From positions 94,713-158,712 of IMG/VR virus record IMGVR_UViG_3300047493_000037: DNA of 64,000 nt; one strand, 5' to 3'. Under the pieces are notes generated by a model. That model was not told the DNA's origin and did no database searches. It was given only the letters and a program-made list of their open reading frames with translations. Numbering within the stretch: the first letter of the stretch is position 1; every line of letters starts with the position of its first letter. Shown piece after piece: positions 16,625 through 61,930 of the stretch. Origin of the DNA: a virus (taxonomy: Duplodnaviria > Heunggongvirae > Uroviricota > Caudoviricetes). The position numbers were made by a program, and so were the translations under genes.

Positions 16625-16625
16625 A

Positions 16626-17300: not shown

Positions 17301-17305
17301 AAATT

Positions 17306-17999: not shown

Positions 18000-18054
18000 A
18001 ATTCTTTTTTTATTAGACTTATAATAATTTGCACCCGCACCTCTTGTGCAAATT

Positions 18055-18131: not shown

Positions 18132-18140
18132 ATGTAACTT

Positions 18141-27210: not shown

Positions 27211-27386
27211 TTCTCACAGGTTACATCTCTAAAGTTGTTAGAGCCGTCGTCACCCCGATCAGCGCACAGGTAGATGTTCTCGTCCCATCTCCTATAGAAG
27301 TGAACTGGCTTTACTTTCTCGCTGCTGAATAATCTAAGTAGTTTTTTGATCACAGAATAAAAAGACCGGGAGCAGTGGAGGAACAT
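27165..27386 (-). CDS. doubtful small ORF (5' end overlaps terminator hairpin)
   Basis: 73-aa ORF whose first 8 codons span the 27363-27401 hairpin + T-tract. Confidence 0.2.
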   Translation of the reverse strand: MFLHCSRSFYSVIKKLLRLFSSEKVKPVHFYRRWDENIYLCADRGDDGSNNFRDVTCEKCLGSFQFGTTTDIP

Positions 27387-27401
27387 CCGCTCCCGGTCAA
27401 C
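27363..27401 (-). terminator. rho-independent terminator after MoxR ATPase gene
   Basis: Minus-strand GACCGGGAGC-ggatgttcctccact-GCTCCCGGTC (10-bp GC-rich stem) followed by TTTTTATT. Confidence 0.7.
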
Positions 27402-27407
27402 TTGGGC

Positions 27408-29894: not shown

Positions 29895-30722
29895 ATGATG
29901 GCTGAAAAGAGCGAATTAACAGATAGCCTAATTTATGGCATCGACTTAAAGGCCCGCCGTATCTACTTTGGTGCAGCTGGTGACGTCTCAGAGGACACAC
30001 CAGGGGACTTTACCCAAGCCTCTGTTGAGCTTGCTATCAGGTCAATGCACAAGATGGCCTTAGAAGCACCAGGGAAGCCTATAGAGATACATATGAATAG
30101 CTACGGCGGCGATCCATATGCCATGCTTAGATTGCATGATGAGATCCTGAGTTGCCCATGTCAGGTTAAGTTCTTTGGGGGTGGCGCTATCATGTCTGCT
30201 GCTACCTGGATTATGGTGGCATGCGATGAGCGATACCTATATCCTCATGCCACTGTTATGGTCCATGATGGCTCAGAGGGCTACGAAGGCAAGCACACAG
30301 ACGTTCAAATTAACGCAGCAGAGAACAGACGCTTGCAGGACTTGCTTTACGACATATATACTAGCAACACTAGGATGCCTAAAGAATTCTGGCAAGATGT
30401 ATGTCAGCGCGATTTATACTTAACTGCTGGCGAAGCAGTGTCACTTGGCATGGCTGATAAGGTAGTTGAACCTAGGAAACGCGGCAACCTAAGAAAGGCT
30501 AGGCAAGCTGCTCTCAAGAAGGCTCCAGATGTCGACATGCGTGCGCTCATCACTGATATATATACTAGGTTGAACAAGGTGAAAGTGCCAAAGCTCGAAC
30601 TTAATCCTATCGCCAAAGAACCGGTTGATCCTCAGCTGGTCGTTGACGATCGTCCACTAGAAAATGAAAAAGCTCCACAACCAGCGGTTGCAGAGCCTCT
30701 CAAGAATACTCCTAACACTTAA
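29895..30722 (+). CDS. ClpP-family (S14) serine protease-like protein with C-terminal extension
   Basis: IEIHMNSYGGDPYAML (cf. IYLYINSPGG), Ser in GGAIMSAAT, His in MVHDGSEGYEG, Asp in CQRD region; 275 aa, plus strand. Confidence 0.7.
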   Translation: MMAEKSELTDSLIYGIDLKARRIYFGAAGDVSEDTPGDFTQASVELAIRSMHKMALEAPGKPIEIHMNSYGGDPYAMLRLHDEILSCPCQVKFFGGGAIMSAATWIMVACDERYLYPHATVMVHDGSEGYEGKHTDVQINAAENRRLQDLLYDIYTSNTRMPKEFWQDVCQRDLYLTAGEAVSLGMADKVVEPRKRGNLRKARQAALKKAPDVDMRALITDIYTRLNKVKVPKLELNPIAKEPVDPQLVVDDRPLENEKAPQPAVAEPLKNTPNT

Positions 30723-31144
30723 TTGCAAGACCCGTCGTTGTCGTCTGTCTTATCGACGTCGATGGTGCTATACACTACGTCGTGAAAGCAAGTGTAGGCT
30801 TTTCCATCTTTGCATCTCCAAAAACTAGCACCACATGGATCATTTTGAGAGCACTTACAGATTGTGTTATGGAACACGTAGTTTGTAACCTTCTCAGGTT
30901 CGGGTGATGCTTCTGGCACTGGTGGATTCTCAACGGCTTGCTGCTCTTCATGAGCTTTCTGCATAGCCTGCTCAGCTTCCTGTTCTTTCTTTTCTTGAGC
31001 TTCTCGAGCCTCTTCCTTCTCGATTCGTTGCTGCCTTGCAACTCGAGCCTCTTGCTCTTTGTCAGTGCAACCACCAAAACCGCCCAAGGCACCAATCAGC
31101 CCAACAACAATAACGCTATTAAGGAGTAGGAGGCGTAGAGTCAT
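30719..31144 (-). CDS. secreted/membrane-anchored protein with coiled coil and Cys-rich C-terminus
   Basis: Start at ATG 31142-31144 (MTLRLLLL signal-like), Glu/Lys-rich middle, C-terminal Cys cluster. Confidence 0.5.
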   Translation of the reverse strand: MTLRLLLLNSVIVVGLIGALGGFGGCTDKEQEARVARQQRIEKEEAREAQEKKEQEAEQAMQKAHEEQQAVENPPVPEASPEPEKVTNYVFHNTICKCSQNDPCGASFWRCKDGKAYTCFHDVVYSTIDVDKTDDNDGSCN

Positions 31145-31366
31145 CTTTGTTATCCTTGCTGGGTGGAGTGGTGAGCAACTGACGAGCAACACCAAACAAA
31201 AGAAAAGCTCCGGCCAAGACGAAAACTGCTAGCGCGATATCGAGTAATGCAGGCATAGTATCTCCTTTTAAAATGTGCCCCTGTGGACTTTAACCACTCC
31301 GTCCGCGAGGCCCACAGACTTTTACCCGGACTAGAGGCGCGACCTCGGTTGGGATAAAAACTTCAC

Positions 31367-32568
31367 TTACTTAGAGTCACCATGAGAAAGCTTCTCATTG
31401 ATGCGCATCAGGCTTTCAAGACCAACGGCTTCGAACGGATCAGCAGTTTTGCCGCCCGCACTTCCGCCAGTGACCATCATGGTTGGCAGGGTAATGCTAG
31501 CGAGCTCGTGAGCGACGCCAATAGCAGTTTCCTTGGCAATGGTGGCCTTCTCAAGAGGAGTCAAGCCTGCAGCAACCTTGAGGCGATTGACGTCGGCCAG
31601 GGCTTTACCAGCCGTGACTTCCGCAATGGCATCCTGCTCAGCTTGCTTGCGCTTGAGCTGGGAGACCTCGAACTCCTTCTCAGCGATCGTCACTTCTTTG
31701 ATCTTCTGCACGTCTTGCTCAGCCTTCTCGATTGCGATCTTGGCATTGCCTTGCTCGCGAGCAGTGATGGCATCTTGCTTCGCTTTTTCAGCGTTAGCAC
31801 GAGCCACAACCTTCATCTGCTCAGCTTCCTTCTTCTTCTGAATGAGTGCTTCGATGGTAGGATCGAAGTCCAATTCCTTGATGGTGAAGGAGACAACTTC
31901 AATGCCGTACTGGGTCAAAGGAGAAGTCTTGCGAATGATAGGTTGACCCTTGTCATCGCGCTTCACAAACACTTCGTGATCAATGAGCTCATTGCCGTCA
32001 GCATCCTTGGACTTGATCTCACGAGCGGTGACATCGTAGATGCCGTTCTTGATCTGGTCTTCCACGAGTGACGTGAACTCTGAGCGTCGAGTCGAATAAG
32101 ACTCTTCAGCTTTCATGAGAGTGGCAGTTTGCATCATCGCTTCTGCGACAGTTTGGCGGATAAGGTCGTGTTTCAAGGCTTCGTAGGATTTGAAGTCTTG
32201 GTGAACCTTGAGCCGTTTGACTCCATCAACAGGGAGTCGATACTTGATAGCGCCGCTGATATCAGCAGTACCACCGTCGTTGAACCTAACGTGAATCGGA
32301 TCAGACTCAGCACCATCGCCACCGTCGAGCTTCGACTTGGAGAAGTAATGCATGTCAGAGATCTGATACGTAGTGACGTCTGCGAACAGACGAGCGTACG
32401 AACCAGGTTGGTCAATGACAGTCATGTTACCGGTCACTGCGGCTTGCTTGATCTGATAGAAGCCGGCGTTATTAGTGCCGACCAAGCTTCGGCCAACGCC
32501 GACGAGCAAGAAGAGACCTACCACACCTGCAACGAGGAGGGATAGGAGTTTCACTTTACGAAAATCCA
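31367..32568 (-). CDS. SPFH/band-7 (flotillin/YqiK)-like membrane protein
   Basis: N-terminal TM after ATG 32566-32568 (AAAGGAAA SD), globular domain then ~120-aa Ala/Glu/Lys coiled coil typical of flotillin-like proteins. Confidence 0.5.
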
Positions 32569-32701
32569 TATTGTTTCCTTTCGGGGAACTGGGATTAAGA
32601 CGTTGACTGACTGCTGCCATTTTTACACACCTCTAATACTAAAATGCCCACCACAGAATATATCTGTGATAGGCATCATTAGTTTCGGAATTTTATTTAG
32701 A

Positions 32702-33621: not shown

Positions 33622-33698
33622 TTTGGTCCACCACCCAGGAATCGAACCTGGGTCAAAGGCTTATAAGACCCCTTGGAGCAACCAGCCCCGACCATGGT
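33622..33698 (-). tRNA. isolated tRNA, tentative anticodon UAU (Ile, AUA-reading)
   Basis: Acceptor CCACCAU/GUGGUGG, T-arm CCAGG-UUCGAUU-CCUGG, CCA encoded, loop CUUAUAA; TGTATAAT -10 immediately upstream (33708-33713 complement). Confidence 0.45.
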
Positions 33699-33700
33699 GG

Positions 33701-36400: not shown

Positions 36401-37867
36401 TCATCTCAAATTGCTGAGTAAGCGCTTACGAATATCGCCAAGACTGTCATCGCGAAGCAGCTTACCGTTTAGATAAACAGGCTGCAACAACCCACCCTTT
36501 TCTTCGGCAGGAGTAACTTGCTGACTCAGAGTGAGATCCTCGTTGACTCGCAGCAAACCCTTTGCAGACTTCTTGACGCCAGAGTCTGTTTTAGGAGCCT
36601 TGAACATGTCGACTGGAGTACCGTTGATAACACCGTACGTTGCTTTAAGAGCCATGCCAAACGTGTCACGGGTGTTATACTGATACGTATACGAGCCGAT
36701 GCCCAAAACAACGTTGGTAGAAGCAAAGCCTTTAGCCTTGAGACCAGCAATGATTTGTTCAGCGCGTTCCAGGGTGATAGAGTCTCCATAGATCAAGCCA
36801 ACGTGCGGATCAAGGCGTTTGTATCCAGTAGACGTAGTCGTTCCACCGAAGATGTCCCAGAGCGTCTCGATGCTACCCTTATACTGAGGTGAACCAGCAG
36901 GTGCGTCAGGATCGCCGCAGATGATCTTTACAGGATCACCGGAGTCAGGACGGAAGACCAGCTTACCTGGGCGAGCCATAATAACTGGCTTCAACTCGGT
37001 TGCCTTATTAGTGATAGTGTCCCAGTAGTCCCACGTGTCAGAGACAACAGAGAGCACTGCAGAGAGCGGATAAACGTCCTTGAGAAGGCGTAGGAAGGTT
37101 TCCACTTCAGTTTCTTGACCACCCATGCACATGACGGAGTGCTCTGTGGCAGGCACGGAGCCACCGATGAGTTCCTTCTCACAGTCGGCATTGTAATAAT
37201 CTTCAAGATAGTCGATCGAAGGGATCGTATCAGTGCCAGTGAAGCTCAAGAGGTGAGCAGCACCAGAGCGAGCCGCGCTCTCAGGCCCATCCATGCCGCG
37301 GAAGGAGAAGTCGTGACCTTGCCACTGGACGAATCCTTCAACCAGCTCAGGATCAGTTTCTTTGGCTGCTGCCGTGAGAACCTTACGATACTCAAACGCG
37401 ATCGTAGCGTTAGTGGATTGCTTCCAAGTGTAAGAAGACAAGACAGTCTCAAGGAAGTTAGGAACCCAGAAGAAGTCTGGGAGAGTGTTGGTGATCGTGA
37501 ACACAGGAACGCCGATCGGAACCAAAGTGCCCTCTGGAAGCGCTTTCACTTCGATGGGAAGGTAACCAAGGTCGTGAAGAGCCGCGATGTGATCGTAGGT
37601 GACCGCACCTGGTCCGAGATAGTTGTCGATGCGGCGCTTGTAGCGGAGAAGAACCTTATCCCTTGGTTGGCTGAAGAAGCTGTCTTGCCAAACTTGATGA
37701 AGCTCTTTCAAGCCGCCTTGCAAACCAAACAACACAGTTGATGTATAGCGTGAATCGCGAGCGCTGCGAAAGGTTGCATTAGTGTAAACCTTCTGCGAAC
37801 CCTTTGGGTATTGACTGCGATGATCGACCTTGTATCCATCTTTCAAATTAACTGCATTCAACTTCAT
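36401..37867 (-). CDS. nicotinamide phosphoribosyltransferase (NAMPT/NadV) family protein
   Basis: 488 aa; N-terminal DGYKVDHRSQYP (cf. TDSYKVTHYKQY) and overall NAMPT-like length and organisation; ATGA overlap with upstream PRS-family gene. Confidence 0.8.
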   Translation of the reverse strand: MKLNAVNLKDGYKVDHRSQYPKGSQKVYTNATFRSARDSRYTSTVLFGLQGGLKELHQVWQDSFFSQPRDKVLLRYKRRIDNYLGPGAVTYDHIAALHDLGYLPIEVKALPEGTLVPIGVPVFTITNTLPDFFWVPNFLETVLSSYTWKQSTNATIAFEYRKVLTAAAKETDPELVEGFVQWQGHDFSFRGMDGPESAARSGAAHLLSFTGTDTIPSIDYLEDYYNADCEKELIGGSVPATEHSVMCMGGQETEVETFLRLLKDVYPLSAVLSVVSDTWDYWDTITNKATELKPVIMARPGKLVFRPDSGDPVKIICGDPDAPAGSPQYKGSIETLWDIFGGTTTSTGYKRLDPHVGLIYGDSITLERAEQIIAGLKAKGFASTNVVLGIGSYTYQYNTRDTFGMALKATYGVINGTPVDMFKAPKTDSGVKKSAKGLLRVNEDLTLSQQVTPAEEKGGLLQPVYLNGKLLRDDSLGDIRKRLLSNLR

Positions 37868-38655
37868 ACCTTGTATCCATCCTTATTTCTAGTTAAACTA
37901 TTAGTAGTATACACAGTGTCAATTCCGTTAGCCAATAGAAGCTCTTGACCTTTACTGAACAGTCCGTGGGTCACACAGAGATCAACCTTAATATTGTGGT
38001 CTTGGCTTCTCAAGAGCTTTGCCACGCTTAGGAACGTAGCTCCTCCGTCACATAAGTCATCAACGATGAGAAACCTTTTACCAGGTTTTCCTTCATCCTT
38101 AAAGACAACCTTGTGCCCAGTGATCTCACCGGTGAGTTGGTTTCGAGTCTTATCGCAGACGATGTGAGAGTATTGATTGAGGTCTTCGTTGTAGCGATCT
38201 TGCGCTCCAACATCCGGGAAGACGATGTAATCAGGCTCAGAAGCCTTGATAACATATTCCTGGAACTCAGTAGGATAGATATTGACAAAGTTCTTGATAA
38301 GACTTCCAGCCTTAAGAGGGTTATGAACGTCGTTGGAAGAAACCTTATAGAAGTTCATCGAGTTAATAAGGTCCGCTATGACTTCAAAATTAAACGTTGA
38401 GGAGTTAGAGACCTCCTTGTCTTGACGAGCGTAAGGCATGTACGGGACATGCAAGCTCACCGCAGCAAGCGGTCCAAGGAGTTTCCTTAGCGAGAGTAGG
38501 TCAAGCACTTCACGCTCGCTCTCAAACCGCCAGTCAATGTCGACACTGCTACTTAGTAGGATGTCCTCTGGAAGCTTCCACACCTGAGAAGTACCATCGG
38601 GAAAGATGGTAGGCTTAAGGACGTAAGAACTATTTGCGGTTGCAACTGTGATCAT
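37864..38655 (-). CDS. ribose-phosphate pyrophosphokinase (PRS) family protein
   Basis: PYMPYARQDK (cf. Prs PYFGYARQDR) and type-I PRT motif FLIVDDLCDGGATF; 263 aa. Confidence 0.75.
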   Translation of the reverse strand: MITVATANSSYVLKPTIFPDGTSQVWKLPEDILLSSSVDIDWRFESEREVLDLLSLRKLLGPLAAVSLHVPYMPYARQDKEVSNSSTFNFEVIADLINSMNFYKVSSNDVHNPLKAGSLIKNFVNIYPTEFQEYVIKASEPDYIVFPDVGAQDRYNEDLNQYSHIVCDKTRNQLTGEITGHKVVFKDEGKPGKRFLIVDDLCDGGATFLSVAKLLRSQDHNIKVDLCVTHGLFSKGQELLLANGIDTVYTTNSLTRNKDGYKV

Positions 38656-41847: not shown

Positions 41848-42555
41848 ATGTAAATATATGATCAGAATTATAGGAGTTTACCGAGCAGATGGAATAAGCT
41901 GTAGTAGGTCTGGTGGTTTCCTACGAATATGCCACCGCAACGTTTTATGATGATGTCATCTGCTCTATCAAGAATTGCATTTTTGGTATTAAACAACACG
42001 CGTGTTTATATAATCAGAATAAGCGGCCACGAAGCAGTGTCAAGGTATTAATCTTGTAACCCTAAGTTTGGATAACAATAAGACCACATAGTACGTAGAA
42101 ACTTCTTTATTATAGGTATCTAACTCATCGAACAATAAAGCAAACGATTTTATGACACGATCTGGCTTACGATAGCTCTTCATGAGCACATCTCGCAACC
42201 GATGTCGCAGAAGCCGCACTCTGCACAGCCATAGCCGACCGGCCACTCATACATATAAAGACAAGGATCAACACTGAGACGCCTGAGGAGAAGTATCAGT
42301 CTAGTTTTCGCTTGGTGATCTGTTTGAAAGCGCATCACAGACGATCCGCATTAATGAAGATAACGCGGCCACGCTGTCTCCTACTGATTATAGTGAGATG
42401 CATCATTAGACGGGTAAGATCCGATATTGAGATATAGTGCCGATGCGTAAAACGCATAGAGAATTTGGTTGCAAGGCCAGTAGTCGAAACTGGTACACCT
42501 TCATGCTTATGAGGCATGCGAGCCGCCGTTGCTCGATCCTTGCGATCTAAATTAT

Positions 42556-46227: not shown

Positions 46228-46665
46228 TCATAAAAACTTCTCCGCTAAGTATGCTAACGTTATTGCATGCAAGAGCTGATCAAAGCCAATAGTGGCGTAG
46301 AACCAATGATCTTCCCAGAATTGCCACTCTCCACCGTCACTCATTAGTGAATGATGTGGCTTACCCTGCATCAAACTTTTCCACTTATTGCCAAAACCAT
46401 CATAAAGTCTTTGACCTACGAACCACTTATATCCGCGCCAAATATTCCAGTCAATAACGCCATGGATCAAGGCATTGGCCGTAGCAAATTGCCAGTTAGT
46501 AAATAGTGCAAATATTGTCCACTGAATTGCTAGATGACCTGCGAGCCAAGAGAGATGAGAAGATTTCTTCTTTCCCATCTCCCTCGGCTGTAGTAAAAAG
46601 TCTGCAGTAAAATGCAAAGCTAGTAGCTTTGCAAACAGCTGGCATGCTTCGGAAGAGATTATCAT
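46228..46665 (-). CDS. membrane protein (Trp-rich, DUF3307-like)
   Basis: 145-aa ORF with several hydrophobic segments. Confidence 0.5.
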   Translation of the reverse strand: MIISSEACQLFAKLLALHFTADFLLQPREMGKKKSSHLSWLAGHLAIQWTIFALFTNWQFATANALIHGVIDWNIWRGYKWFVGQRLYDGFGNKWKSLMQGKPHHSLMSDGGEWQFWEDHWFYATIGFDQLLHAITLAYLAEKFL

Positions 46666-47394: not shown

Positions 47395-48132
47395 TTAATC
47401 GCCGATACCAAAGCTAGAAAGAATGCCAAGTGTTGGGGTATAAGCGCTTCCGCCGCCATCAGTAGCATAATAGACTTGAACATTAAGTCCAACTACTTCA
47501 CCTTCTTTGTCAAACACTGGCCCACCGCTCATACCAGGTTGAAGAACACCATTGAGACACTTGATGAGGAAGGCATCGTTGGACTTGGGAAATAGGTTTT
47601 CGCAGTGAATAAAATGAGAACCCTGAGGATAGCCGCAGGCGAACACTACAGGCTCAATCTTAAGCTGCGTGGAGACTAGAATTGCGCCAGGAATAACGGA
47701 GAAATTACCATGAATCAAACCCCAATCCATGCGCGTGTTTACGCCGACTAGCTGTCCTTTGATGACAGCGCTACCGTCGTCGTTTACAACTCCCAGCTCT
47801 TGATCCTTCATCTTGCCTTCTTCATCAACTAGGCAATGTGCTGCAGTGAGAACATAGTTATTACCAATGACAACCCCAGTACAGACGAAGTCTCCACGGG
47901 CGTACAACCTAACAATTGATCTAGTTGGATCTACTTTAGAGCTTGGTGCTAGCTTTGGAAGGTTTTTGAACACTTGATGGCTTGAAACGGCGGCGGGAGG
48001 GAGAAGCATGCTAGTGAGAAACACTAGTCCAATTGCCATGTATGCTAAAGTGAAGACCAGCATTACTCCTTTTATGCAAGAACCTGTAAACTTAGCGAGA
48101 CCCTTAGCGAAGGAGATGAGTTGTGATAGCAT
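47395..48132 (-). CDS. trypsin-like (S1) serine protease with N-terminal signal anchor
   Basis: His motif LTAAHC, Ser motif GMSGGPV, N-terminal TM; 245 aa. Confidence 0.8.
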   Translation of the reverse strand: MLSQLISFAKGLAKFTGSCIKGVMLVFTLAYMAIGLVFLTSMLLPPAAVSSHQVFKNLPKLAPSSKVDPTRSIVRLYARGDFVCTGVVIGNNYVLTAAHCLVDEEGKMKDQELGVVNDDGSAVIKGQLVGVNTRMDWGLIHGNFSVIPGAILVSTQLKIEPVVFACGYPQGSHFIHCENLFPKSNDAFLIKCLNGVLQPGMSGGPVFDKEGEVVGLNVQVYYATDGGGSAYTPTLGILSSFGIGD

Positions 48133-48186
48133 GATGGCCTTTCAAATTAGATTGCTAATCTAATTTTACCTCGCAACGAGTAAGTA

Positions 48187-48996
48187 TCACCTGCTGAGCG
48201 CTTCTCTCACAAGCTTTCCAGTAGCAACTGCAGTAGCTTGTGAAGTGCCAGTCATGCGTCCAAACTTTCCGCCAGGCAGAGTTGAGAGAACTTCCGTACC
48301 AATTTCCCAGCGCTTAATATAGCTACCATAGTTAGAACTAGGCGCACGCTTAACTTCATCGATGTTGTCTTGTAAGTTACCAACAACCACAATCCTGTCG
48401 TCGTAGCAAGCAGGGAAGTAGTCGCATTTACTCGGAGCTGGTTCATCTGGGATTACACTTAATGGTCCAGGAAGCGCGTGATAGTTTGGTGCCTTGCTTG
48501 CACCGTCTAACGCATTCTTGTCACCAAGATCCGTGTGCTCATTGCCTGCGGCAACTACCACCTTAATACCTTTATTCAAGGCATCAACAATGAGACTATA
48601 CTCGTCTGAAGACCAACCAGGTCCACCACCAGAAATGTTGATGAAGTCAACCTTGATGTTAATAGCGTACTGAATCGCCTCAAGCAATGCACGCTTGTTC
48701 TGATAGCCAGTGTGGTACTCAGAGAAGTACTTGATGGCGACCAGACAATAATCACCAAAGCCAGCATTAGAACTCACTAACCCAGCAATGTGAGTGCCAT
48801 GCCCATTAGTGTCTTCGGTTGGACTCAAGAGAGTGCGGCCGCGATAGGCGAAAGACTTATGACCCATCTTGCAAAGATTGGGCAATGTCTTATCGACACC
48901 GGTATCAATGATAGCGATGGTGATAGTTTTGCTGTATGCCAACGCGGGCATCACGAACATCGAGGCTAAAACAGCGAGTTTAAGTGCTTTCACCAT
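48187..48996 (-). CDS. subtilisin-like (S8) serine protease, secreted
   Basis: Asp IAIIDTGVD, His NGHGTHIAGL, Ser GTSQATAVATG; signal peptide MVKALKLAVLASMFVMPALA; start ATG 48994-48996 with GGAGGA SD. Confidence 0.85.
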   Translation of the reverse strand: MVKALKLAVLASMFVMPALAYSKTITIAIIDTGVDKTLPNLCKMGHKSFAYRGRTLLSPTEDTNGHGTHIAGLVSSNAGFGDYCLVAIKYFSEYHTGYQNKRALLEAIQYAINIKVDFINISGGGPGWSSDEYSLIVDALNKGIKVVVAAGNEHTDLGDKNALDGASKAPNYHALPGPLSVIPDEPAPSKCDYFPACYDDRIVVVGNLQDNIDEVKRAPSSNYGSYIKRWEIGTEVLSTLPGGKFGRMTGTSQATAVATGKLVREALSR

Positions 48997-49189
48997 GAGA
49001 TCCTCCAATGATCTTTAAGATCATTGAGTATATCTCGTTTCGGTATTCATCGCCAGGTTCAACAGAGGCACAGACGCTCTTGATATCACCGTCAGTGTAG
49101 CCTTTAGCGCGCATAGATTCAAACAGCTCGTAAGCTTCATTGTGAATTCTATTCTTACTTCTGATCCTGTCGTCTTCGTACATTCCCAT
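48980..49189 (-). CDS. hypothetical protein
   Basis: 69-aa ORF. Confidence 0.4.
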   Translation of the reverse strand: MGMYEDDRIRSKNRIHNEAYELFESMRAKGYTDGDIKSVCASVEPGDEYRNEIYSMILKIIGGSHGEST

Positions 49190-49198
49190 TGCAGGGTT

Positions 49199-49483
49199 CT
49201 ACTTTCTCTTGTTGGACTTCACTGGTGCAAAGTCTCCAGCCAACAAAGCAGCAACCTCACCCTTCGTGTAGGTTTGATAGTTGTAATCTGCTGGTGGTCT
49301 TTCAGGTTCAACGTACGGAGAAGTAGATGCTTCAACTAGAGCGTTGACTTCATCTTGGTCGATAAGATAACTAAGTACCATTCGATACTTAGACCTAGGT
49401 TGTTCTTCGTACTCTTCTTGCTCGAATTCGGGTTCGTACTGACGTACGGGTTCCCTAGTCTTCTGTTTATTTTTTTTGGCCAA
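49199..49483 (-). CDS. hypothetical protein
   Basis: 94-aa ORF. Confidence 0.5.
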   Translation of the reverse strand: MAKKNKQKTREPVRQYEPEFEQEEYEEQPRSKYRMVLSYLIDQDEVNALVEASTSPYVEPERPPADYNYQTYTKGEVAALLAGDFAPVKSNKRK

Positions 49484-49535: not shown

Positions 49536-49898
49536 TTAAGTCTTCGTGGTCGCAACTGCTTCCGTGCCCAGGGTTTGCTCAAGAGCTTCATCGAAACCCA
49601 TATCGTAAGTGACATTACGGCACTCTTCCACGATTTCCTTGAACATTTCGTCCTGGAACGCTTCGTGCTCAGTGTAACCGATCGCCTTGCAGACCTGCAA
49701 CTTAACTTCGTTCTGGTTCTCCCAAGTAGGTTCCTTAGAGAACTTCTCGAAAGCTGCCTTCAATGCTGGAGGCATAGGAACTTCGAAGTGAGTCCAGAAG
49801 TCAGCCGCACCGCTGCAATCTTCAGGCGTGATCGACACCGTTTTCGAAACTTCCTGCAGCGCGTTGTTCTCAGACTCTTTAACTTCATTATTAGCCAT
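49536..49898 (-). CDS. hypothetical acidic protein
   Basis: 120-aa ORF. Confidence 0.55.
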   Translation of the reverse strand: MANNEVKESENNALQEVSKTVSITPEDCSGAADFWTHFEVPMPPALKAAFEKFSKEPTWENQNEVKLQVCKAIGYTEHEAFQDEMFKEIVEECRNVTYDMGFDEALEQTLGTEAVATTKT

Positions 49899-50000: not shown

Positions 50001-51038
50001 ATGACAAAAGTTGACGAGTTAATTAAGAAGTTTCAAGAGTTTAAAGAAGAGCTTAACAAGAACGGCGTCAATATGTCTTGCACGTCAATGCCTAACGCAA
50101 CCACGGGAACTTCTGGTGGTGAAGGCGGAATGTATCGCTCTGAAGTAGATAAGGCAGAAGCTACTAAAGACGCAAAAGTTATCTCAACCAATAAACTTAT
50201 CAAGCCAAGCCAAGTAGAAGATCAGGGCGCATCTAACTTCAAGATTAAGTCTCCTAAAGGAACAAAGATTTCTGGTGGTTCTCGTCACCCAATGACTCAA
50301 GATGTTCCACAGCTAAGACAAAGTGAAGTAGACAAATGTGGCGAAGATATGATGGCCATGTCTGAAGACGTAATTAAGTTTGAGAAGAACGGCCAATGGA
50401 GTTTGAACAAGAGCGCATTCAAAACACTTCAAGGCAAGATCGAGCGTGAAGGCCATAGCAAGGAATCTGCGGGTGCAATTACTGCTTCAATAGGCAGGAA
50501 AGAACTTGGTCAGAAAGAGATGACTGCAAGATCTAAGGCTGGCATGAACAAGGTTGACCCAGATGAGAATGTCAATATCGCCCATCCTCAAGGCAAGGCT
50601 AAGATGGCTAACGGCGTTAACAAAGGCGAAGACGGTATCGACAACGCAAGAGAAGGTACGAGCCAGCGCATTGCTAATCCCCCTGTTAAGGATGTCGGAG
50701 ATGCTCGTGGCAAGATTCACATGGTTAAAGATGAAGGCATAAATGAGAAAGCTGCCTCTTCTAAGCCACACAATAAAGGCAAGTTTAAGGTGATGGACGA
50801 AGTCACTGAAAAAGAATCTAAGAAAGAAAAAGTCACTGGACTACCTTATAGTGGTGATGACAAGAAGATGCATAAGGCGGATGGCACCAACCATGAAGCA
50901 ACAATGAATGCAACAGCTCCAAAAGACCCTAAGGGTCAAGTTCACGTCGTGCAGCACAAAGGCACTGGACCTCAAGGTAACAATGCTAAAGGCAATGACG
51001 AGAACAAAGCTCCTGGCCGCGGAACGCTAAGCGTTTAA
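50001..51038 (+). CDS. Lys/Gly-rich low-complexity (likely disordered) protein
   Basis: 345-aa plus-strand ORF with TAGGAGA SD 5 nt upstream. Confidence 0.65.
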   Translation: MTKVDELIKKFQEFKEELNKNGVNMSCTSMPNATTGTSGGEGGMYRSEVDKAEATKDAKVISTNKLIKPSQVEDQGASNFKIKSPKGTKISGGSRHPMTQDVPQLRQSEVDKCGEDMMAMSEDVIKFEKNGQWSLNKSAFKTLQGKIEREGHSKESAGAITASIGRKELGQKEMTARSKAGMNKVDPDENVNIAHPQGKAKMANGVNKGEDGIDNAREGTSQRIANPPVKDVGDARGKIHMVKDEGINEKAASSKPHNKGKFKVMDEVTEKESKKEKVTGLPYSGDDKKMHKADGTNHEATMNATAPKDPKGQVHVVQHKGTGPQGNNAKGNDENKAPGRGTLSV

Positions 51039-51691
51039 CTCCAATTTAAGGCAGCAGCCACATCAGGAAGTCTACCCTTGAGTAGGTTTCTGCACTCTAT
51101 CGCTATGTCAGCGTGTTCCTTCTGTGTTCCATTACCGGAACGCAACTCAATATAATGAATCCAAGAGCGCACCGACCCGCTCATATAAATAATAGTAGCT
51201 GTATTTAGCGGAAGTAGAAACCTAGCTTGCTCCTTTGCTACACCCTTTGCCAACGCGTCTTCATAAAGCTTATACTGACGCTCCCATGTTTCTTTCTGCG
51301 TGTGCTCAAACCAATTCTTGGTTGTCTCGTCCATGTCATCTATTGAGTTTTGTCTGTTCTTACTATCTTGTCTACGAGCAGGATAAGGAATGTACTCTGA
51401 GGATGCAGCATACCTCTGGCTAAACTCTTGAAACGTGAAAGAGCGATGGCGAAGTATCTGGGCAGCAATGGCACGAGAAGTTTTAATCTCCATCGTAGCG
51501 AACGAGTGCTCGAAGATGCTCCAGTGTTCGTGCGTGATACAATACTTAATAAGCTTACTTCCTGTCTCAAAGCTCATCTGATTATTCGGATTACTCACCC
51601 GTGCGACGTACGAGATTATATCTTGCGCGCTCTTCCCCACAAGATCTTCTACACCTTCCGTTATCGCAACTAATTTTACGCTTTGATCCAT
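51035..51691 (-). CDS. thyX: flavin-dependent thymidylate synthase
   Basis: ThyX motif RHRSFTFQEFS (RHR-x7-S); start at ATG 51689-51691 with AGAGGGA SD (219 aa); track start 51910 would overlap nrdJ. Confidence 0.85.
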   Translation of the reverse strand: MDQSVKLVAITEGVEDLVGKSAQDIISYVARVSNPNNQMSFETGSKLIKYCITHEHWSIFEHSFATMEIKTSRAIAAQILRHRSFTFQEFSQRYAASSEYIPYPARRQDSKNRQNSIDDMDETTKNWFEHTQKETWERQYKLYEDALAKGVAKEQARFLLPLNTATIIYMSGSVRSWIHYIELRSGNGTQKEHADIAIECRNLLKGRLPDVAAALNWS

Positions 51692-51721
51692 TTTTATCCC
51701 TCTGTTAATGCGTTCAACTGG

Positions 51722-51760
51722 TAAAATAATTATACTTACCGCATGATAAATAATCATACA
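51722..51760 (-). promoter_or_regulatory. putative thyX promoter in divergent thyX/nrdJ intergenic region
   Basis: Minus-strand aaGTATAATtattt about 30 nt upstream of thyX ATG. Confidence 0.3.
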
Positions 51761-53407
51761 AATACTCTCAGGAGAGACAACTTGGAAAACGACTTCGACG
51801 TATTCTCGAGCAAGTTCGCATATGACATATATATGCAAAAATACAGCATGAATGGCACTGAGAGATGGGCAGACACTTGTCAAAGAGTTGTCAGCGCTGT
51901 ATGTGGTCAATTAATTGATACCAAGTCTAAGAACAAGATTCTTAAGTACATGGTTGAGAGAAAGTTTATTCCTGGTGGCAGATACTTATATTCTGCTGGC
52001 AGAAGCTTTCACCAGGTCAACAATTGCTTCCTGTTCAGAGCAGAGGATAGCAGAGAAGGTTGGGCAGATCTCATGTTTAGCATCACCTCTGGTCTCCTTA
52101 CAGGCGGAGGAATTGGAGTGGACTACACCAACATTAGGTATAAGGGCGCGCCTATTAAGCGCACTGGCGGAGTTTGCACTGGTCCGACTAGCTTGATGCA
52201 TATGGTCAATGAGAGTGGCCGACATATTATGCAAGGCGGACAACGTCGCTCTGCAATCTGGGCTGGACTTACTTGGTCGCATAAAGACATTCCAGAGTTC
52301 ATGACTGTAAAGAACTACAATGATGACCTTAGGGAACTCAAGAGAAAAGACCCTATGTTCCCACTCCCAATGGAGTTCACCAACATCTCTGTTATATACG
52401 ACACAGAGTTCTTTATAGCAGTTGAAGACGAGAGTCACCCTAGGCATGCTGAATCTAAGGCTATCTGGTTACAAAACTGTAGACAAGCCTTTTCCACTGC
52501 CGAGCCAGGCATGTCGTTCAACTTTAGAAGAGACAGCGAGTCCCTAAGAAATGCCTGCACTGAAGTTGTTAGCGAGGACGATAGTGACAAGTGTAATCTT
52601 GGCACAGTATGGATGAACAGGTGTATAGACAAGAAGGAATTTGCGGACGTGTGTAAGTTTGCAGTGTTGTTCCTACTGTGCGGCAGCATCTACAGCGATC
52701 TCCCTACTAATAAGATTCAACAGGTTGGCAAGATGAACAACCGTATTGGCCTAGGGTTAGGCGGCATTCATGAGTGGCTAATGACCAGAGAATACGGCTA
52801 TGAGTGTGTCCCAGAGCTTCATAAGTGGCTTGCTACGTATGAGCGCGAGAGCGATTCGGCTGCATTCATTGGAGCTAAGCAACTTGGAGTTGCAGTGCCT
52901 AAGGGCGTAAGAGCTATTGCGCCCAATGGAACTATTGGAATCATAGCTGAGACTACTACAGGAATTGAGTCCCTCTTCTGTAAGGCATATAAGCGTAGCT
53001 ACTTGAAAGACGGTAAGTGGGTCTATCAGTATGTGGTAGACGGTGCAGTTAAGAGACTACTTGGCCTTGGTATTAAGATTGAAGACATACAAGACTCTTA
53101 CGACATCTCATTCAAGGATAGAGTGAAGTTCCAAGCTGACGTGCAGCAATATGTAGACATGGCTATCTCTTCTACCTGCAACCTACCTATGTGGGGTTCA
53201 GAGAAGAATAGTGAGGACACGCTGGAAGAGAATGCAGCTATCCTACTTAAGTATGCCAGAAGACTTAGAGGTTTCACTGCTTACCCTGACGGATGCAGAG
53301 ATGGACAACCTCTCGTTAGGGTAGACTTGCAAGAGGCTCTCTCGAACGAAGGTGTACTATTTGAAGACAAACAGGTAGAATGTACCAATGGTGTCTGCGG
53401 AATCTAA
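51743..53407 (+). CDS. nrdJ: class II (adenosylcobalamin-dependent) ribonucleotide reductase
   Basis: GGGIGVDYTNIRYKGAPIKRTGGVCTGPTSLMHMVNESGRHIMQGGQRRSAIWAGLTWSHKDIPEFMTVK matches the NrdJ active-site block (GGG.G.s.s.lRpkG....G....SGPvSFM......s..vkQGG.RRgA). Start may instead be TTG near 51782 with AGGAGAG SD. Confidence 0.75.
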   Translation: MINNHTNTLRRDNLENDFDVFSSKFAYDIYMQKYSMNGTERWADTCQRVVSAVCGQLIDTKSKNKILKYMVERKFIPGGRYLYSAGRSFHQVNNCFLFRAEDSREGWADLMFSITSGLLTGGGIGVDYTNIRYKGAPIKRTGGVCTGPTSLMHMVNESGRHIMQGGQRRSAIWAGLTWSHKDIPEFMTVKNYNDDLRELKRKDPMFPLPMEFTNISVIYDTEFFIAVEDESHPRHAESKAIWLQNCRQAFSTAEPGMSFNFRRDSESLRNACTEVVSEDDSDKCNLGTVWMNRCIDKKEFADVCKFAVLFLLCGSIYSDLPTNKIQQVGKMNNRIGLGLGGIHEWLMTREYGYECVPELHKWLATYERESDSAAFIGAKQLGVAVPKGVRAIAPNGTIGIIAETTTGIESLFCKAYKRSYLKDGKWVYQYVVDGAVKRLLGLGIKIEDIQDSYDISFKDRVKFQADVQQYVDMAISSTCNLPMWGSEKNSEDTLEENAAILLKYARRLRGFTAYPDGCRDGQPLVRVDLQEALSNEGVLFEDKQVECTNGVCGI

Positions 53408-56097: not shown

Positions 56098-56355
56098 TCA
56101 TGCGTCTTCCTGACGTTGCCGCTCTGGCACTAATCGAGGAACAGCAGCTGGATCTATATGTGAGATCATTACCAAGTCCTTCCACTTCTTCACGTAAGGG
56201 ATGTGACCAGCAGGAACTTCAAGCTCAAACAATCGACCCTCAGCGCTTTGAAGAGTGACGTACGTATCTCCAGTGCCTAAAAAGGGCGAGTACATATTAT
56301 CCATAACCCGTACTCGCATATCTCGCTGCTCATCATTGACGTAATAAATCTTCAT
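56098..56355 (-). CDS. hypothetical protein
   Basis: 85-aa minus ORF; competes with Cys-rich plus ORF 55953..56258 that has an AGGTGA SD. Confidence 0.4.
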   Translation of the reverse strand: MKIYYVNDEQRDMRVRVMDNMYSPFLGTGDTYVTLQSAEGRLFELEVPAGHIPYVKKWKDLVMISHIDPAAVPRLVPERQRQEDA

Positions 56356-57062
56356 ATACCTATCCCGTAAGAGGCACCAACTATGCTAGTTGGAACTCCT
56401 CTGTCTTGCATTGGAAACGAACCAGAAAGCGACAAACCGATGTGACCTAAAAGGGTCTTGCTAAAGCTAGTCGTGAATGCTTGCTGATTAGCAGAGAAAC
56501 TTGCATTCACTAAAAATGAAGACACAGCGAGAGACGCATTTCTGCCCTCCACGCTTCCACCCACTATCACCTTAGTACCTGATGCTATATCAAATGGAAC
56601 ACTTGCTCCCTTGTAGATGCTGTACGCGCCGCCAACTAGCACTGCAGGCACCTTAGTAACGTCTTCTATCTTAAGAACCGTGGGATTGTCTTTCAGCTTA
56701 CCAAGAACAGCGTTCCTCTGTGTAGTCATCTGATAAGACTTAATCTCTGAGAACACATTAGAGCTAAAGCTTGTCATCGCGTTAATGTAAGCAATTTGAT
56801 CGTTGATTCCCATAATGCCGTAGTTGGAACGCATCTCATAGTAGCGATTAGCATCAGCATACTGCTGACTAAGTTGCAACTGCCTATTCTTATCAAGGAT
56901 AACAATATCACTGCCAGGAGAAGAGTACTTGGTATCTAGCAAATAGGATTCATTTGCTTGGATGCCAGCAAACTCAGCTGCATTCGCATTGGAGGCGGAG
57001 AGCATTAGAATAAGTTTAGCCAGTCTTCGCACGCTTTTTCCTAGGTTTCTTAGGCTTCTCAT
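56352..57062 (-). CDS. secreted protein (signal peptide, Ser/Gly/Ala-rich, beta-rich)
   Basis: 236 aa, N-terminal signal LILMLSASNANAAEF. Confidence 0.55.
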   Translation of the reverse strand: MRSLRNLGKSVRRLAKLILMLSASNANAAEFAGIQANESYLLDTKYSSPGSDIVILDKNRQLQLSQQYADANRYYEMRSNYGIMGINDQIAYINAMTSFSSNVFSEIKSYQMTTQRNAVLGKLKDNPTVLKIEDVTKVPAVLVGGAYSIYKGASVPFDIASGTKVIVGGSVEGRNASLAVSSFLVNASFSANQQAFTTSFSKTLLGHIGLSLSGSFPMQDRGVPTSIVGASYGIGI

Positions 57063-60801: not shown

Positions 60802-61479
60802 TTAGTGATAGAAGCCAGCAGAACTCATCAGCGCGCCATCTTCGTTGAGGATGAGCGCTTCGTTGCCGGCACCTTGCAAGTAGTCAAGTTCAAAGCTGTA
60901 GAAGCCATACTTGAGGTACTTGGACTTTGACACAGTTTGAGCTCCGTGCATGCCATCATTGTTGATGAGCAAGCCGCTAACATAGAGATTGGCACCATCG
61001 TCGCTGGTGAGATCAAACTCATGCCAGTTGTCATCAGAGACCACGAGATCCCCAGTGCACTTCACGATGTACCAAGTCTGGTATACGTTCTGCATGCCAG
61101 CCGGAAGGATATTCAGTCCTGCAGAGGTTGGTCCATTGGCTTGGTTGAATTGACCAGCGTAAGAGAAGCTTCCAACACCGGTGAGCACTGGAGCAGTTCC
61201 ACCGTTGGCTGCTGCGGTGATGCCCGTCGTGGTCGTAGGAACCGTGTAGACGTTGCAGTCAAGGCCAGGAACGAGAGCTTCTTGTCCGACATTGAGACGA
61301 TAGTTGTTCTCGGTGTCCACCATTACTTGGACAGCGCTTTCGGTTGGGGTGGGAGATGGAGTCGCCGCGGGTCCAGTTGCACCCGGAGCTCCTACAGGAC
61401 CTTGAGGTCCAAGATCACCCTGATTACAAGCCGCTACGCTAAACGCCATCAAGAACACGAGCATACCAAGATTCTTCAT
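60802..61479 (-). CDS. lipoprotein with collagen-like G-x-y tract and PA14-like beta domain
   Basis: Signal + lipobox MLVFLMAFSVAAC, GPQGPVGAPGATGPA repeats, C-terminal YGFYSFELDYLQGAGNEALILNEDG resembling PA14/GLEYA carbohydrate-binding domains. Confidence 0.55.
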   Translation of the reverse strand: MKNLGMLVFLMAFSVAACNQGDLGPQGPVGAPGATGPAATPSPTPTESAVQVMVDTENNYRLNVGQEALVPGLDCNVYTVPTTTTGITAAANGGTAPVLTGVGSFSYAGQFNQANGPTSAGLNILPAGMQNVYQTWYIVKCTGDLVVSDDNWHEFDLTSDDGANLYVSGLLINNDGMHGAQTVSKSKYLKYGFYSFELDYLQGAGNEALILNEDGALMSSAGFYH

Positions 61480-61495
61480 ACTTCTTCCTCCATTG

Positions 61496-61930
61496 TTATT
61501 CGAACAGCTTTCTTAACATCACATCTAAACCCGTTGAGTAGTAATAAAAAGGATTGTTGATCAGCGGGTTCATAATGTTCTCTGCGTCAGTGGTGTGATA
61601 CAGATTCAACACGCAATGACCAAACTCATGATAAGCAAGAATAAGTTGTAAGTCAGGACCAGCTTGGTTCCAAAACCCTGGATCGATAGTGACCGTTCCT
61701 CCACCATAGCCAACGGAGGAACACTCGCCAATCACCTCACCTAGGGTAGTTTGCTCTTCAAGCTTAGAAAACTGAACCGTTAATCCTTGGTTAGATTGAA
61801 GTTGATGGCCGTACGTACCTGAATCCTTAATGAATTGGTCGTAGATCGGCTGCAATGCGGGATCGATGTTATTCGGACCTTGTCCGCACCCGCAAAGCGT
61901 CATTGATAATGCAACAACCATCATTTTCAT
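61496..61930 (-). CDS. lipoprotein zinc metallopeptidase (HExxH)
   Basis: Start at ATG 61928-61930 (MKMMVVALSMTLCGCGQ signal/lipobox), LAYHEFGHCVL zinc-binding motif. Confidence 0.5.
   Translation of the reverse strand: MKMMVVALSMTLCGCGQGPNNIDPALQPIYDQFIKDSGTYGHQLQSNQGLTVQFSKLEEQTTLGEVIGECSSVGYGGGTVTIDPGFWNQAGPDLQLILAYHEFGHCVLNLYHTTDAENIMNPLINNPFYYYSTGLDVMLRKLFE

Follow-up and report, generated by a model that had tools for sequence, protein, structure and literature searches.

Predicted exported subtilisin-like and trypsin-like serine proteases form a conserved two-gene module in an uncultivated large-phage lineage

The window analyzed here, a stretch of 64,000 nucleotides from a Caudoviricetes phage genome of approximately 177 kb originating in peat or Sphagnum habitats (IMG/VR record IMGVR_UViG_3300047493_000037), carries two adjacent serine protease genes on its minus strand, to which we refer by peptidase family as S8 and S1. 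The S8 gene encodes a "mini-subtilase" (48187..48996) of 269 amino acids if translation begins at the ATG at 48996, or 273 if it begins at the TTG at 49008. The ATG is probably the true start since it is preceded by GGAGGA and the resulting 269 residues equal the size of P0001, a database protein 100% identical to S8 and encoded on a 176,837-bp contig. S1 (47395..48132) is a 245-residue PA-clan serine protease with an HtrA/DegS-like protease domain and no PDZ domain. All genes flanking the pair mentioned here lie on the minus strand as well. Directly upstream of S8 is a gene for 69 residues (48980..49189), followed by one for 94 residues that is conserved in relatives (49199..49483; homologues in L001, L002, L004, L087 and L113) and by one for a clade-specific acidic protein of 120 residues (49536..49898), which serves as the lineage marker. 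Downstream of the pair lies a DUF3307 membrane protein (46228..46665; Pfam PF11750, 8.5e-8; phrog_2470, "membrane protein"), which is syntenic in L001 and L089 and present there in some relatives. The small genes at 48980..49483 share one strand with S8 and show operon-like spacing, with no significant promoter or terminator among them; promoter- and terminator-like sites are no commoner than in shuffled sequence. A 10-bp, AT-rich hairpin separating the two protease genes was not significant either (z = -1.7).

The first-pass annotation had described these genes as adjacent S1 and S8 proteases with intact catalytic triads and N-terminal export signals. This description held, with the export signals as predictions: both proteins score above their Pfam cutoffs and the expected folds are modeled with confidence. 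S8 matches Peptidase_S8 (PF00082) at 2.7e-22 with 79.8 bits (cutoff 21.8), and it has the Asp-His-Ser order and the oxyanion Asn of peptidase S8, encoded at 48904-48906 (D), 48799-48801 (H), 48541-48543 (N) and 48241-48243 (S). These residues (D35, H70, N156 and S256) are invariant in an alignment of 28 sequences, and all four motifs were found in 114 of 120 matches. The AlphaFold2 model (pLDDT 85.7) has subtilisin BPN' as its top Foldseek match (E 1.8e-16; TM of approximately 0.65, 26-29% identity). Profile and predicted subtilisin fold together confirm the assignment to peptidase S8, with the order of the triad, the oxyanion Asn and the alpha/beta fold common to S8 being shared with BPN' and the S8A group.

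In other respects, S8 differs from BPN'. It lacks approximately 20 N-terminal and 40 C-terminal residues of a canonical mature subtilisin: 11 residues precede the catalytic Asp in the mature chain, against 31 in BPN', and 17 follow the catalytic Ser, against approximately 54. Since the mature chain starts only 11 residues ahead of the Asp, there is no propeptide, in contrast to the I9 propeptide of BPN'. The same applies to the family, where a median of 27 residues lies ahead of the catalytic Asp motif among 115 relatives, i.e., the signal peptide alone, a layout outside the classical S8A/I9-propeptide type. The residue following the Ser is Gln instead of Met (GTSQATA), and two conserved cysteine pairs are a feature of the phage enzyme that BPN' does not share. 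Classical secreted subtilisins need their propeptide for folding and, with this element and the terminal segments missing, the activity of S8 is not guaranteed. A Pro-rich insertion of approximately 25-30 residues (48459..48533, minus strand; …DKNALDGASKAPNYHALPGPLSVIPDEPAPS…) is unique to the window protein, corresponding to a gap in 27/27 other aligned sequences, and is modeled with low confidence (pLDDT < 50 at residues 169-187). The S8 family is strongly conserved despite the missing propeptide and fold termini.

S1 matches Trypsin_2 (PF13365) at 2.4e-15 with 58 bits (cutoff 27.6), as well as the Pfam Trypsin family (4.2e-11). As a single query it retrieved no relative from IMG/VR; relatives were obtained through the neighbors of S8 genes and a large protein search. 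Its catalytic residues H99, D136 and S202 (codons 47836-47838, 47725-47727 and 47527-47529) are invariant among 32 aligned relatives, and the His and Ser motifs were found in 110 of 112 matches. The top Foldseek matches of its AlphaFold2 model (pLDDT 95.5) were MucD, HtrA and DegS-deltaPDZ; the His-Asp-Ser order and this predicted double beta-barrel fold of the HtrA/DegS type confirm S1 as a peptidase S1 of the PA clan. Membership of the HtrA/DegP/DegS group (S1C) is a different matter. The 245-residue chain stops at the protease domain with no PDZ, and the NCBIfam HtrA models give just 16-35 bits against cutoffs of 416-800 (for one curated HtrA model, 35 bits against 470). In its putative layout S1 resembles DegS, which is composed of an N-terminal inner-membrane anchor and a periplasmic chymotrypsin-fold domain, whereas HtrA proteins do not have the long, repeated basic motif found at the N-terminus of the phage S1.

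Export was called for both proteases with a heuristic based on hydropathy, charge and cleavage motif. S8 has a predicted Sec-type signal peptide (48937..48996, minus strand; MVKALKLAVLASMFVMPALA, with cleavage ahead of YSK), and the same arrangement of a basic n-region, a hydrophobic core and an A-x-A-like site was detected in 110 of 115 relatives. The putative export or anchor region of S1 (47998..48132, minus strand), delimited by the heuristic, the alignment and AlphaFold2, is longer: a basic amphipathic stretch at residues 1-22 is followed by a hydrophobic helix at residues 23-45 and then by a conserved linker, LPxxxVSSxQ. AlphaFold2 models residues 2-43 as helix, and the N-terminal motif LKxxPxLxxSCLK is present in one to three copies. 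A hydrophobic segment (17 residues averaging 1.8 or more on the Kyte-Doolittle scale) with a net-positive segment upstream was found in 91 of 112 S1 relatives. Judging from sequence, this N-terminus may anchor the protein in N-in/C-out orientation or may be a signal peptide of unusual length.

The cysteines point in the same direction as the N-termini. In S8, the positions of C46 and C88 hold a cysteine in 114/114 and 112/114 relatives, respectively, and a second pair, that of a CxYFPAC motif, co-varies, with both cysteines in 94 relatives, neither in 13 and a single one in 3; S8 likely carries two disulfides. In S1, C84 and C100 are kept in all aligned relatives, and C166 and C177 are nearly invariant. 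By their spacing, C84 and C100 look like the positions of the chymotrypsin 42-58 disulfide, the "histidine loop" pair, and we know of no HtrA protease that has it. Both enzymes look exported and catalytically competent.

The pair occupies a fixed place. Gene order in the conserved block is RNaseH-HesB-RNR-ThyX-ClpP-two small genes-S8-S1-ligase-exonuclease, so that the proteases sit between clade-specific small genes and DNA ligase, inside a replication and nucleotide-metabolism module, and this position is held in every sufficiently related phage contig examined. The S8-S1 block recurs in many uncultivated phage contigs of 60-180 kb from peat and Sphagnum metagenomes, with identical gene order in L001, L002, L004, L005, L087, L092, L094, L113 and L175, and approximately 19 database matches of S8 and S1 fall on contigs of equal size. 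The acidic marker protein, 41-77% identical in 10 distinct IMG/VR loci, is always encoded upstream of the protease slot, and 10/10 of these loci have at least one exported or membrane protease there: S8 and S1 in six contigs, S1 alone in one, and S8 with a membrane-anchored ClpP/NfeD-like protein in three near-identical ones. Synteny is held though the S8 proteins of the contigs are only 37-57% identical, and catalytic residues are invariant across relatives of 40-57% identity. The S8 and S1 reading frames overlap in L094 and L175, which suggests translational coupling. On the other hand, a distant phage group has S8 without S1, directly behind a reading frame that, judged from sequence, encodes a DnaE-like protein (Pol III alpha), so the two enzymes need not act together. 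The listed neighbors with an assigned function are all DNA- or nucleotide-metabolism genes or proteases; beside the pair there are no recognizable lysis or exclusion genes. S8-S1 is a conserved two-gene module of a large-phage lineage and not stray cargo. When cultured relatives were sought by blastn and tblastn among 50,697 GenBank phage records, only the thymidylate synthase gene was matched, apart from distant matches to approximately 30% identical Bacillus phage S8 genes and to generic ligases.

Other potentially exported proteins are encoded further along the window, where a lipoprotein with collagen repeats and a PA14 domain, an HExxH lipoprotein at 60802..61930 and a cluster of lipoproteins had been reported. 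Both lipoproteins were confirmed by motif; the range, however, spans two minus-strand genes and not one, and the word cluster is generous, with lipobox candidates dispersed over the window (30719, 38630, 54741, 60802 and 61496). The first gene (60802..61479), preceded by a strong GGAGGA ribosome-binding site, encodes the PA14/collagen-like protein, with a G-x-y run at residues 21-38 (61366..61419) and PA14 at residues 138-207 (60859..61068). PA14 (PF07691) is matched with 25.8 bits (cutoff 24), and most relatives are pre-annotated with it. The collagen part is less firm: only six G-x-y triplets are present in the window protein, which has no match to PF01391 (Collagen), whereas relatives have from 0 to approximately 15 triplets and three of them reach PF01391. 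All 84 relatives have the lipobox Cys (Cys18 in the window protein, invariant in 22 sequences, by motif only) and a variable G-x-y run, and some share phage contigs with S8. The second gene (61496..61930) encodes a 144-residue metzincin-like lipoprotein with the zinc motif HEFGHCVLNLYH at 61595..61630, followed by a Met-turn (IMNP). Invariant positions are H101-E102-x-x-H105-x6-H112 and M120, and conservation of the lipobox Cys15 reaches 90% or more (again by motif only). The HExxH…H zinc motif and the Met-turn recall the PF18894 and matrixin-like metzincins, from which the protein differs by a third His one residue further than in HExxHxxGxxH and by its lipoprotein signal. While 16/30 relatives match PF18894 (PhageMetallopep) and 13/30 match M10, the window protein stays under all Pfam cutoffs, with no PF18894 match and 20.9 bits for M10 (cutoff 24). 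The family has 1087 representatives in the library at E<=1e-3, and its profile shows a weak resemblance to the catalytic domains of matrix metalloproteinases. Both the PA14 and the HExxH lipoprotein belong to conserved families. A third protein, of 236 residues (56352..57062, minus strand), had been credited with a signal peptide, which is possible only if the ATG at 57062 is used; this start has a weak ribosome-binding site and a 47-nt overlap with the upstream reading frame, leaving the call uncertain. It had no match in Pfam, PHROG, NCBIfam or PADLOC and, as a single query, no relative in IMG/VR; a PHROG scan of ten small reading frames at 54.7-63.2 kb gave a single match, to a family with no assigned function.

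As to origin, the closest S8 genes of cellular organisms lie on chromosomes of Bdellovibrionota. Among 185,579 species genomes, Bdellovibrionota account for 7/8 best cellular S8 matches, with 171-194 bits, while all other cellular matches reach at most 131 bits. Phage S8 clades adjoin the Bdellovibrionota clade in a neighbor-joining tree, and the S8 of L113, L112 and L110 fall inside it. The L113 protein, a full-length S8 in the same slot, is 61% identical over 352 residues to a Bacteriovoracaceae gene that is chromosomal and adjoins lnt; therefore, S8 was exchanged with bacteria at least once, and this replacement by a bacterial-type gene hints at the host. Envelope subtilases of Bdellovibrionota, encoded in MAGs next to lnt, and the phage S8 have in common a signal peptide and the signatures KYY…NL, INYSGGG and GTSQATA. 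The bacterial enzymes, however, are 310-480 residues long and retain the N- and C-terminal segments missing from the mini-S8, and the window protein is only approximately 33-35% identical to them. It should be kept in mind that the link to Bdellovibrionota comes from one gene family and a crude neighbor-joining tree.

We hypothesize that S8 and S1 are an exported module for envelope proteolysis in the periplasm of the infected cell, with envelope remodeling as its favored purpose, and we lean towards this reading with slightly better than even confidence. S8 and S1 would be transcribed together with the replication and nucleotide-metabolism genes and exported by Sec to the periplasm of a diderm host, where their disulfides would form; S1 may be exported or tethered to the membrane by its long basic N-terminal segment and hydrophobic helix. 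Their targets there would be proteins of the infected cell's envelope or periplasm. The host envelope, one of several options raised in the first-pass annotation, is the most plausible place of action, and the DUF3307 membrane protein possibly belongs to the same envelope-directed set. The phage S8 would descend from an envelope subtilase of Bdellovibrionota, with a full-length bacterial version now occupying the locus in one close relative. It is reasonable to assume from this descent and same-locus replacement that the phage S8 probably does the biochemical job of the bacterial enzyme under phage control. The least certain step is the purpose of the remodeling, which may be, for example, receptor removal or the exclusion of superinfecting phages.

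Alternatively, S8 and S1 could be dedicated maturases of phage-encoded exported proteins, such as the PA14/collagen and metzincin lipoproteins or other secreted early proteins, and leave host proteins alone. Among curated families, S8 comes closest to processing subtilases of narrow specificity that have no propeptide (T7SS mycosin, 67.9 bits; QhpE, 38.3 bits), both far under the cutoffs. Several exported proteins are conserved in the same lineage, and the longest contig listed for a PA14 relative (P0246) is equal in size, at 85,654 bp, to that of an S8 relative (P0054), probably one and the same. However, a candidate substrate gene adjoins the pair in no locus, a distance of 12 kb and an unrelated set of small genes go with the PA14 and HExxH genes, and some phage groups with S8 showed neither lipoprotein in its vicinity, all of which makes such a role unlikely. 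Assistance in lysis, by severing envelope proteins, such as those that tether the outer membrane to peptidoglycan, and thereby complementing or replacing spanins, would suit the predicted periplasmic location and the putative S1 membrane anchor. The replacement of S1 in one sub-lineage by a membrane-anchored protease of a different family is in line with it too, suggesting that membrane-proximal protease activity is what counts. We find this quite improbable, though, considering that the genes lie within a replication module, that no endolysin or holin was recognized nearby in the window or in relatives, and that producing a lytic factor early or midway through infection would be risky for a phage. 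Secreted proteases are exceptionally numerous in Bdellovibrio genomes. If the host is Bdellovibrio-like, as the nearest cellular S8 genes and the 61%-identical full-length copy may indicate, S8 and S1 might be an auxiliary "predation" set, in which secreted proteases sustain prey digestion and feed phage replication; extracellular proteases of Bdellovibrio are documented (PMC3898049). We give this little credence: the host assignment is tentative, a plain Sec signal would reach only the predator's own periplasm, and the bacterial homologs adjoin lnt, a lipoprotein maturation gene, which points to envelope housekeeping rather than to prey digestion.

Two further possibilities, both raised in the first-pass annotation, fare worse. 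Serine prohead proteases are common in phages and PHROG calls both families just "protease", which would allow for work in virion or prohead maturation. Yet both enzymes have predicted export signals and disulfide-type cysteines, the pair lies far from head genes with no portal or capsid neighbor, and a ClpP-type protease, the usual class of prohead protease, is encoded separately; we regard this role as very improbable. The genes had also been called unusual cargo or, alternatively, part of a non-phage mobile element. As a sign of recent acquisition (a moron, or part of an inserted element) one could take the bacterial-type S8 in the slot of L113. Against this stand the synteny kept at such low S8 identity, an unremarkable base composition and GC content, the replication contexts in which more distant S1 relatives are likewise found in phages, and the fact that no adjoining integrase, transposase or flanking repeat was seen. 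Recent acquisition in either form is thus hardly credible.

Returning to envelope proteolysis, our literature search found no published description of such a phage protease pair. To our knowledge, lytic phages act on the host envelope via holins, endolysins, spanins and small exclusion proteins, and a lineage-wide pair of exported serine proteases would add periplasmic proteolysis to this repertoire. A more daring version is that this large uncultivated lineage of 150-180 kb phages infects predatory Bdellovibrionota and that S8 and S1 are a phage-run counterpart to the predator's own set of envelope and secreted proteases, which is possible but rather doubtful. For Bdellovibrionota, the same search returned no large phages, only small predator phages (a microvirus and dwarf myoviruses). 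Repeated exchange of S8 with these bacteria would provide a concrete host hypothesis for an abundant peatland phage group. On this more daring reading, the module would include a subtilase that folds without propeptide and terminal fold segments, and the phage would use it for receptor destruction or superinfection exclusion, for outer-membrane release at lysis or for sustained prey digestion to its own benefit. Independently of the host, S8 is a natural test case for the formation of the subtilisin fold without an intramolecular chaperone, and it could serve as a compact protease scaffold.

Secreted phage-encoded proteases have a precedent. Staphylococcal exfoliative toxin A is a secreted S1 protease encoded by phiETA, a temperate phage whose host is a Gram-positive pathogen, and its gene acts in lysogenic conversion. 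Exfoliative toxins are among the sequence matches of S1 (E 9e-6); in contrast to the toxin gene, S1 is a syntenic, lineage-wide part of a large-phage replication module. A part in anti-phage defense was rejected, with PADLOC giving only weak domain matches (LmuA, 31.9 bits; "subtilase", 36.5; IetS, 21.7). The S8 and S1 families themselves were already catalogued in phages, as PHROG 3677 and 9683 ("protease") and as subtilases of SPO1-like Bacillus phages and other phages, none with a described function. In a viral fold library, subtilase folds were seen in giant viruses and a few phages.

The window encodes two adjoining proteases on the minus strand, an S1 (trypsin-like) enzyme of 245 aa (47395..48132; Pfam Trypsin_2, 2.4e-15; Trypsin, 4.2e-11) and an S8 (subtilisin-like) enzyme (48187..49008; Peptidase_S8, 2.7e-22), and all three scores exceed the curated Pfam cutoffs; the PHROG label for either is merely "protease". 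Translation of S8 most likely begins at an ATG (48996) lying four bases downstream of GGAGGA, and the resulting 269-aa product is 100% identical to a database protein on a 176,837-bp public contig. The S1 gene starts at 48132 with GAAAGG ahead. Both proteins belong to their families, have the expected folds and keep the intact catalytic residues attributed to them in the first-pass annotation: D35, H70, N156 and S256 of S8 are invariant among 28 aligned relatives of 46-62% identity, all four motifs being present in 114 of the 120 best hits, and H99, D136 and S202 of S1 are invariant in 32 aligned relatives, with the His and Ser motifs in 110/112 hits. The AlphaFold2 model of S8 (pLDDT 85.7, the sole poorly modelled stretch being a Pro-rich insertion unique to this phage) matches subtilisin BPN' in Foldseek (E 1.8e-16, TM about 0.65); that of S1 (pLDDT 95.5) matches MucD, HtrA and DegS-deltaPDZ. 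In the spacer that separates the stop codon of S8 from the start codon of S1, an AT-rich hairpin with a perfect 10-bp stem and a loop of 3 nt occupies 48144..48166; in folding energy it does not reach significance (z = -1.7).

The phage S8 is a short subtilase. When aligned with its best cellular relatives and with Bacillus subtilases, it begins, after signal-peptide removal, 11 residues before the catalytic Asp and ends 17 after the catalytic Ser, and the phmmer alignment with BPN' covers BPN' residues 24-220 only. These extents indicate that the mature fold has lost about 20 residues at its N-terminus and about 40 at its C-terminus, and that the propeptide is missing too. The best curated-family matches, T7SS mycosin and QhpE (both far below cutoffs), are likewise propeptide-less subtilases, of narrow specificity. 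Export, judged by hydropathy, charge and motif heuristics across both families, is predicted for both proteases, as previously proposed. Of 115 full-length S8 relatives, 110 open with basic residues, then a hydrophobic core and a site of the A-x-A type; the median length before the Asp motif is 27 residues, so that the signal peptide leaves no room for a propeptide. In S1, 91/112 relatives have a hydrophobic segment of 17 residues, with a net positive charge on the residues before it. At the S1 N-terminus (window 48067..48132; database relatives P0131-P0157) a basic motif that contains a Cys, LKxxPxLxxSCLK, stands before the hydrophobic helix in a single copy or in two or three tandem copies, depending on the relative, and a conserved linker, LPGPxVSSxQ, follows; residues 2-43 are modelled as a single long helix. 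Two readings fit this segment: a DegS-like N-in/C-out anchor, or a very long signal peptide with its cleavage site after VSS. Conserved cysteine pairs in both enzymes would fit an oxidising compartment. In S8 relatives a cysteine occupies the C46 position in 114/114 and the C88 position in 112/114, and a second pair co-varies (complete in 94, absent in 13, reduced to a single cysteine in 3); in S1, C84 and C100, whose spacing matches the chymotrypsin 42-58 disulfide, are present in all aligned relatives, and C166 and C177 in nearly all.

The pair had been regarded as unusual cargo, possibly part of a non-phage mobile element. The first IMG/VR relative (L001, S8 46% identical) has the same gene order as the window (RNase H, HesB-like, RNR, ThyX, ClpP, two small clade-specific genes, S8, S1, DUF3307, ligase, exonuclease), and this order is repeated on 46-180 kb contigs of other samples. 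The ClpP just upstream of the S8 slot in relatives is a different paralogue from that of the window, which has no ClpP at that place. Using the 49536..49898 protein as a clade marker independent of the proteases, we retrieved ten distinct IMG/VR loci and inspected the interval from marker to ligase: S8 is followed by S1 in six, S1 stands alone in one, and three near-identical contigs (L089, L090, L091) carry a lipoprotein-type S8 with a lipobox (IIAGC) and then, instead of S1, a membrane-anchored ClpP/NfeD-like protein read from sequence (L089:8759-9451). The latter group appears to have swapped its membrane-proximal protease for one of a different family. In two loci (L094 and L175) the stop of S8 and the start of S1 overlap, and about 19 S8 and S1 database hits probably share contigs, judging by equal contig sizes. 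More distant S1 relatives (29-36% identical) also lie amid phage replication genes. In a second, more distant phage group, S8 is directly downstream of a ~1,200-aa ORF whose sequence we read as DnaE (Pol III alpha), with no S1 within 8 kb. GC content near the pair is ordinary and no mobile-element genes flank it, which, with the conserved synteny, leads us to reject a foreign element and makes mobile-element cargo unlikely. Since the two genes stayed in place through divergence to 37-57% identity, "cargo" is the wrong word for what is a conserved phage module.

The phage S8 is related to subtilases of Bdellovibrionota. In a scan of one genome per species (185,579 species), seven of the eight best cellular matches came from Bdellovibrionales, Bacteriovoracaceae, Oligoflexia, Pseudobdellovibrionaceae and Bdellovibrio MAGs; matches of this type score 171-194 bits with the phage-family HMM, against at most 131 bits for every other cellular sequence, and share the INYSGGG and GTSQATA signatures with the phage proteins. 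Two of these bacterial genes are on 287- and 581-kb contigs, and in two others, from MAGs (Bdellovibrionales, L007:3836-7179; Bacteriovoracaceae, L008:874-3715), lnt (apolipoprotein N-acyltransferase) comes directly after the S8 homologue and shows it to be chromosomal; the pairing may mean that the bacterial enzyme acts in the biology of the envelope or of lipoproteins. In a neighbour-joining tree of the catalytic core, the clades of the short phage form adjoin the Bdellovibrionota clade and three phage sequences fall inside it. One of the three is from L113 (IMGVR_UViG_3300049215_000227, 176,504 bp), a close syntenic relative of the window (marker protein 77%, ligase 72% and S1 54% identical), where a full-length 349-aa S8 occupies the slot of the short form (L113:7809-8858). 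Over 352 residues this protein shares 61% identity with a chromosomal Bacteriovoracaceae gene, against only 34% with the window S8; the slot has thus undergone an in-place xenologous replacement. This replacement argues that the short and full-length forms are functionally interchangeable and that these phages meet Bdellovibrionota genomes, making Bdellovibrionota, on the evidence of one gene family and a crude tree, a candidate host phylum.

Other exported proteins had been described as a lipoprotein cluster; the lipoprotein candidates are in fact spread across the window. The PA14 lipoprotein (60802..61479) has a strong ribosome-binding site and 84 relatives. All those that were aligned share the lipobox Cys, a G-x-y run that differs in length among them, and a conserved C-terminal domain whose last residues are (F/Y)YH. 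Relatives occur on ~175-kb phage contigs amid many small genes without known function. Two relatives have been deposited under the names of the mosses Sphagnum jensenii and S. balticum (P0239 and P0475; CAK9249688.1 and CAM6004834.1; contigs of 45 and 185 kb) and are probably from phage contigs within plant genome assemblies. The HExxH lipoprotein (61496..61930) belongs to a large family of ~150-aa lipoproteins (1087 representatives) with invariant HExxHx6H and Met-turn; 16/30 relatives match PF18894 PhageMetallopep and 13/30 matrixin, the window protein falling below threshold. The signal peptide proposed for 56352..57062 hinges on an uncertain start codon, and this ORF has no family or relatives in Pfam, PHROG, NCBIfam or IMG/VR.

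Phage subtilase and trypsin-like genes have been recorded before (PHROG 3677 and 9683; Bacillus and Lactococcus phages; giant viruses), and the S8 and S1 families themselves are not new. What is new is a predicted architecture in which an anchored S1 without a PDZ domain is paired with a subtilase that has no propeptide, is truncated at both ends and bears disulfides, the conservation of the pair as a module of a large uncultivated phage lineage, and its link to Bdellovibrionota; our literature search found no description of such a phage module. Both enzymes would be co-expressed with replication genes and exported through Sec to the periplasm of a diderm host, where their disulfides would form, and these predictions have good support. 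As to purpose, we tentatively favour cleavage of host envelope proteins that might remodel the infected cell, either by removing receptors or by excluding other phages. The reasons are that the genes are grouped with early and middle functions, that a protease of another family can stand in for the membrane-proximal partner, and that the lineage also retains several further proteins directed at the envelope. Alternatively, the pair may mature exported proteins that the phage itself encodes, may help in lysis or, should the host be a predator, may serve as an auxiliary in prey digestion; head maturation is unlikely.

The surrounding window is phage DNA. Roughly 80% of ORFs are on one strand, and a tRNA scan found 26 tRNA genes, all on the minus strand; a loose array at 9.9-18.2 kb (9930..18216) contains 24, and the others are at 33624..33700 and 42466..42544. 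The window codes for ribonucleotide reductase, RNase H, an ATP-dependent ligase and two thymidylate synthases of different types, a PHROG match that is probably ThyA-type (3340..4194) and ThyX (51035..51910). Against a 50,697-record phage collection, DNA similarity is confined to a thymidylate synthase gene and protein matches are all distant. Nicotinamide phosphoribosyltransferase and ribose-phosphate pyrophosphokinase genes lie side by side as an NAD salvage pair (36401..38655). A ClpP-type protease (plus strand), a lipoprotein candidate (30719..31195) and an SPFH/Band-7 membrane protein (31367..32620) form a group (29895..32620) resembling bacterial NfeD-SPFH pairs. A DUF2201 metallopeptidase/VWA-like protein is encoded near a MoxR-like AAA ATPase (27408..28547, within 25454..28547), and the same pair occurs near a distant S1 relative in another locus (L180). 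Lineage relatives also carry a FlgM-like anti-sigma factor and a protein matching Pfam Acb5 (L005:3630-4013, L167:10665-10931). Unusual for a phage is a VTC-domain gene (19312..20223; 4.1e-34), a domain associated with polyphosphate polymerases.
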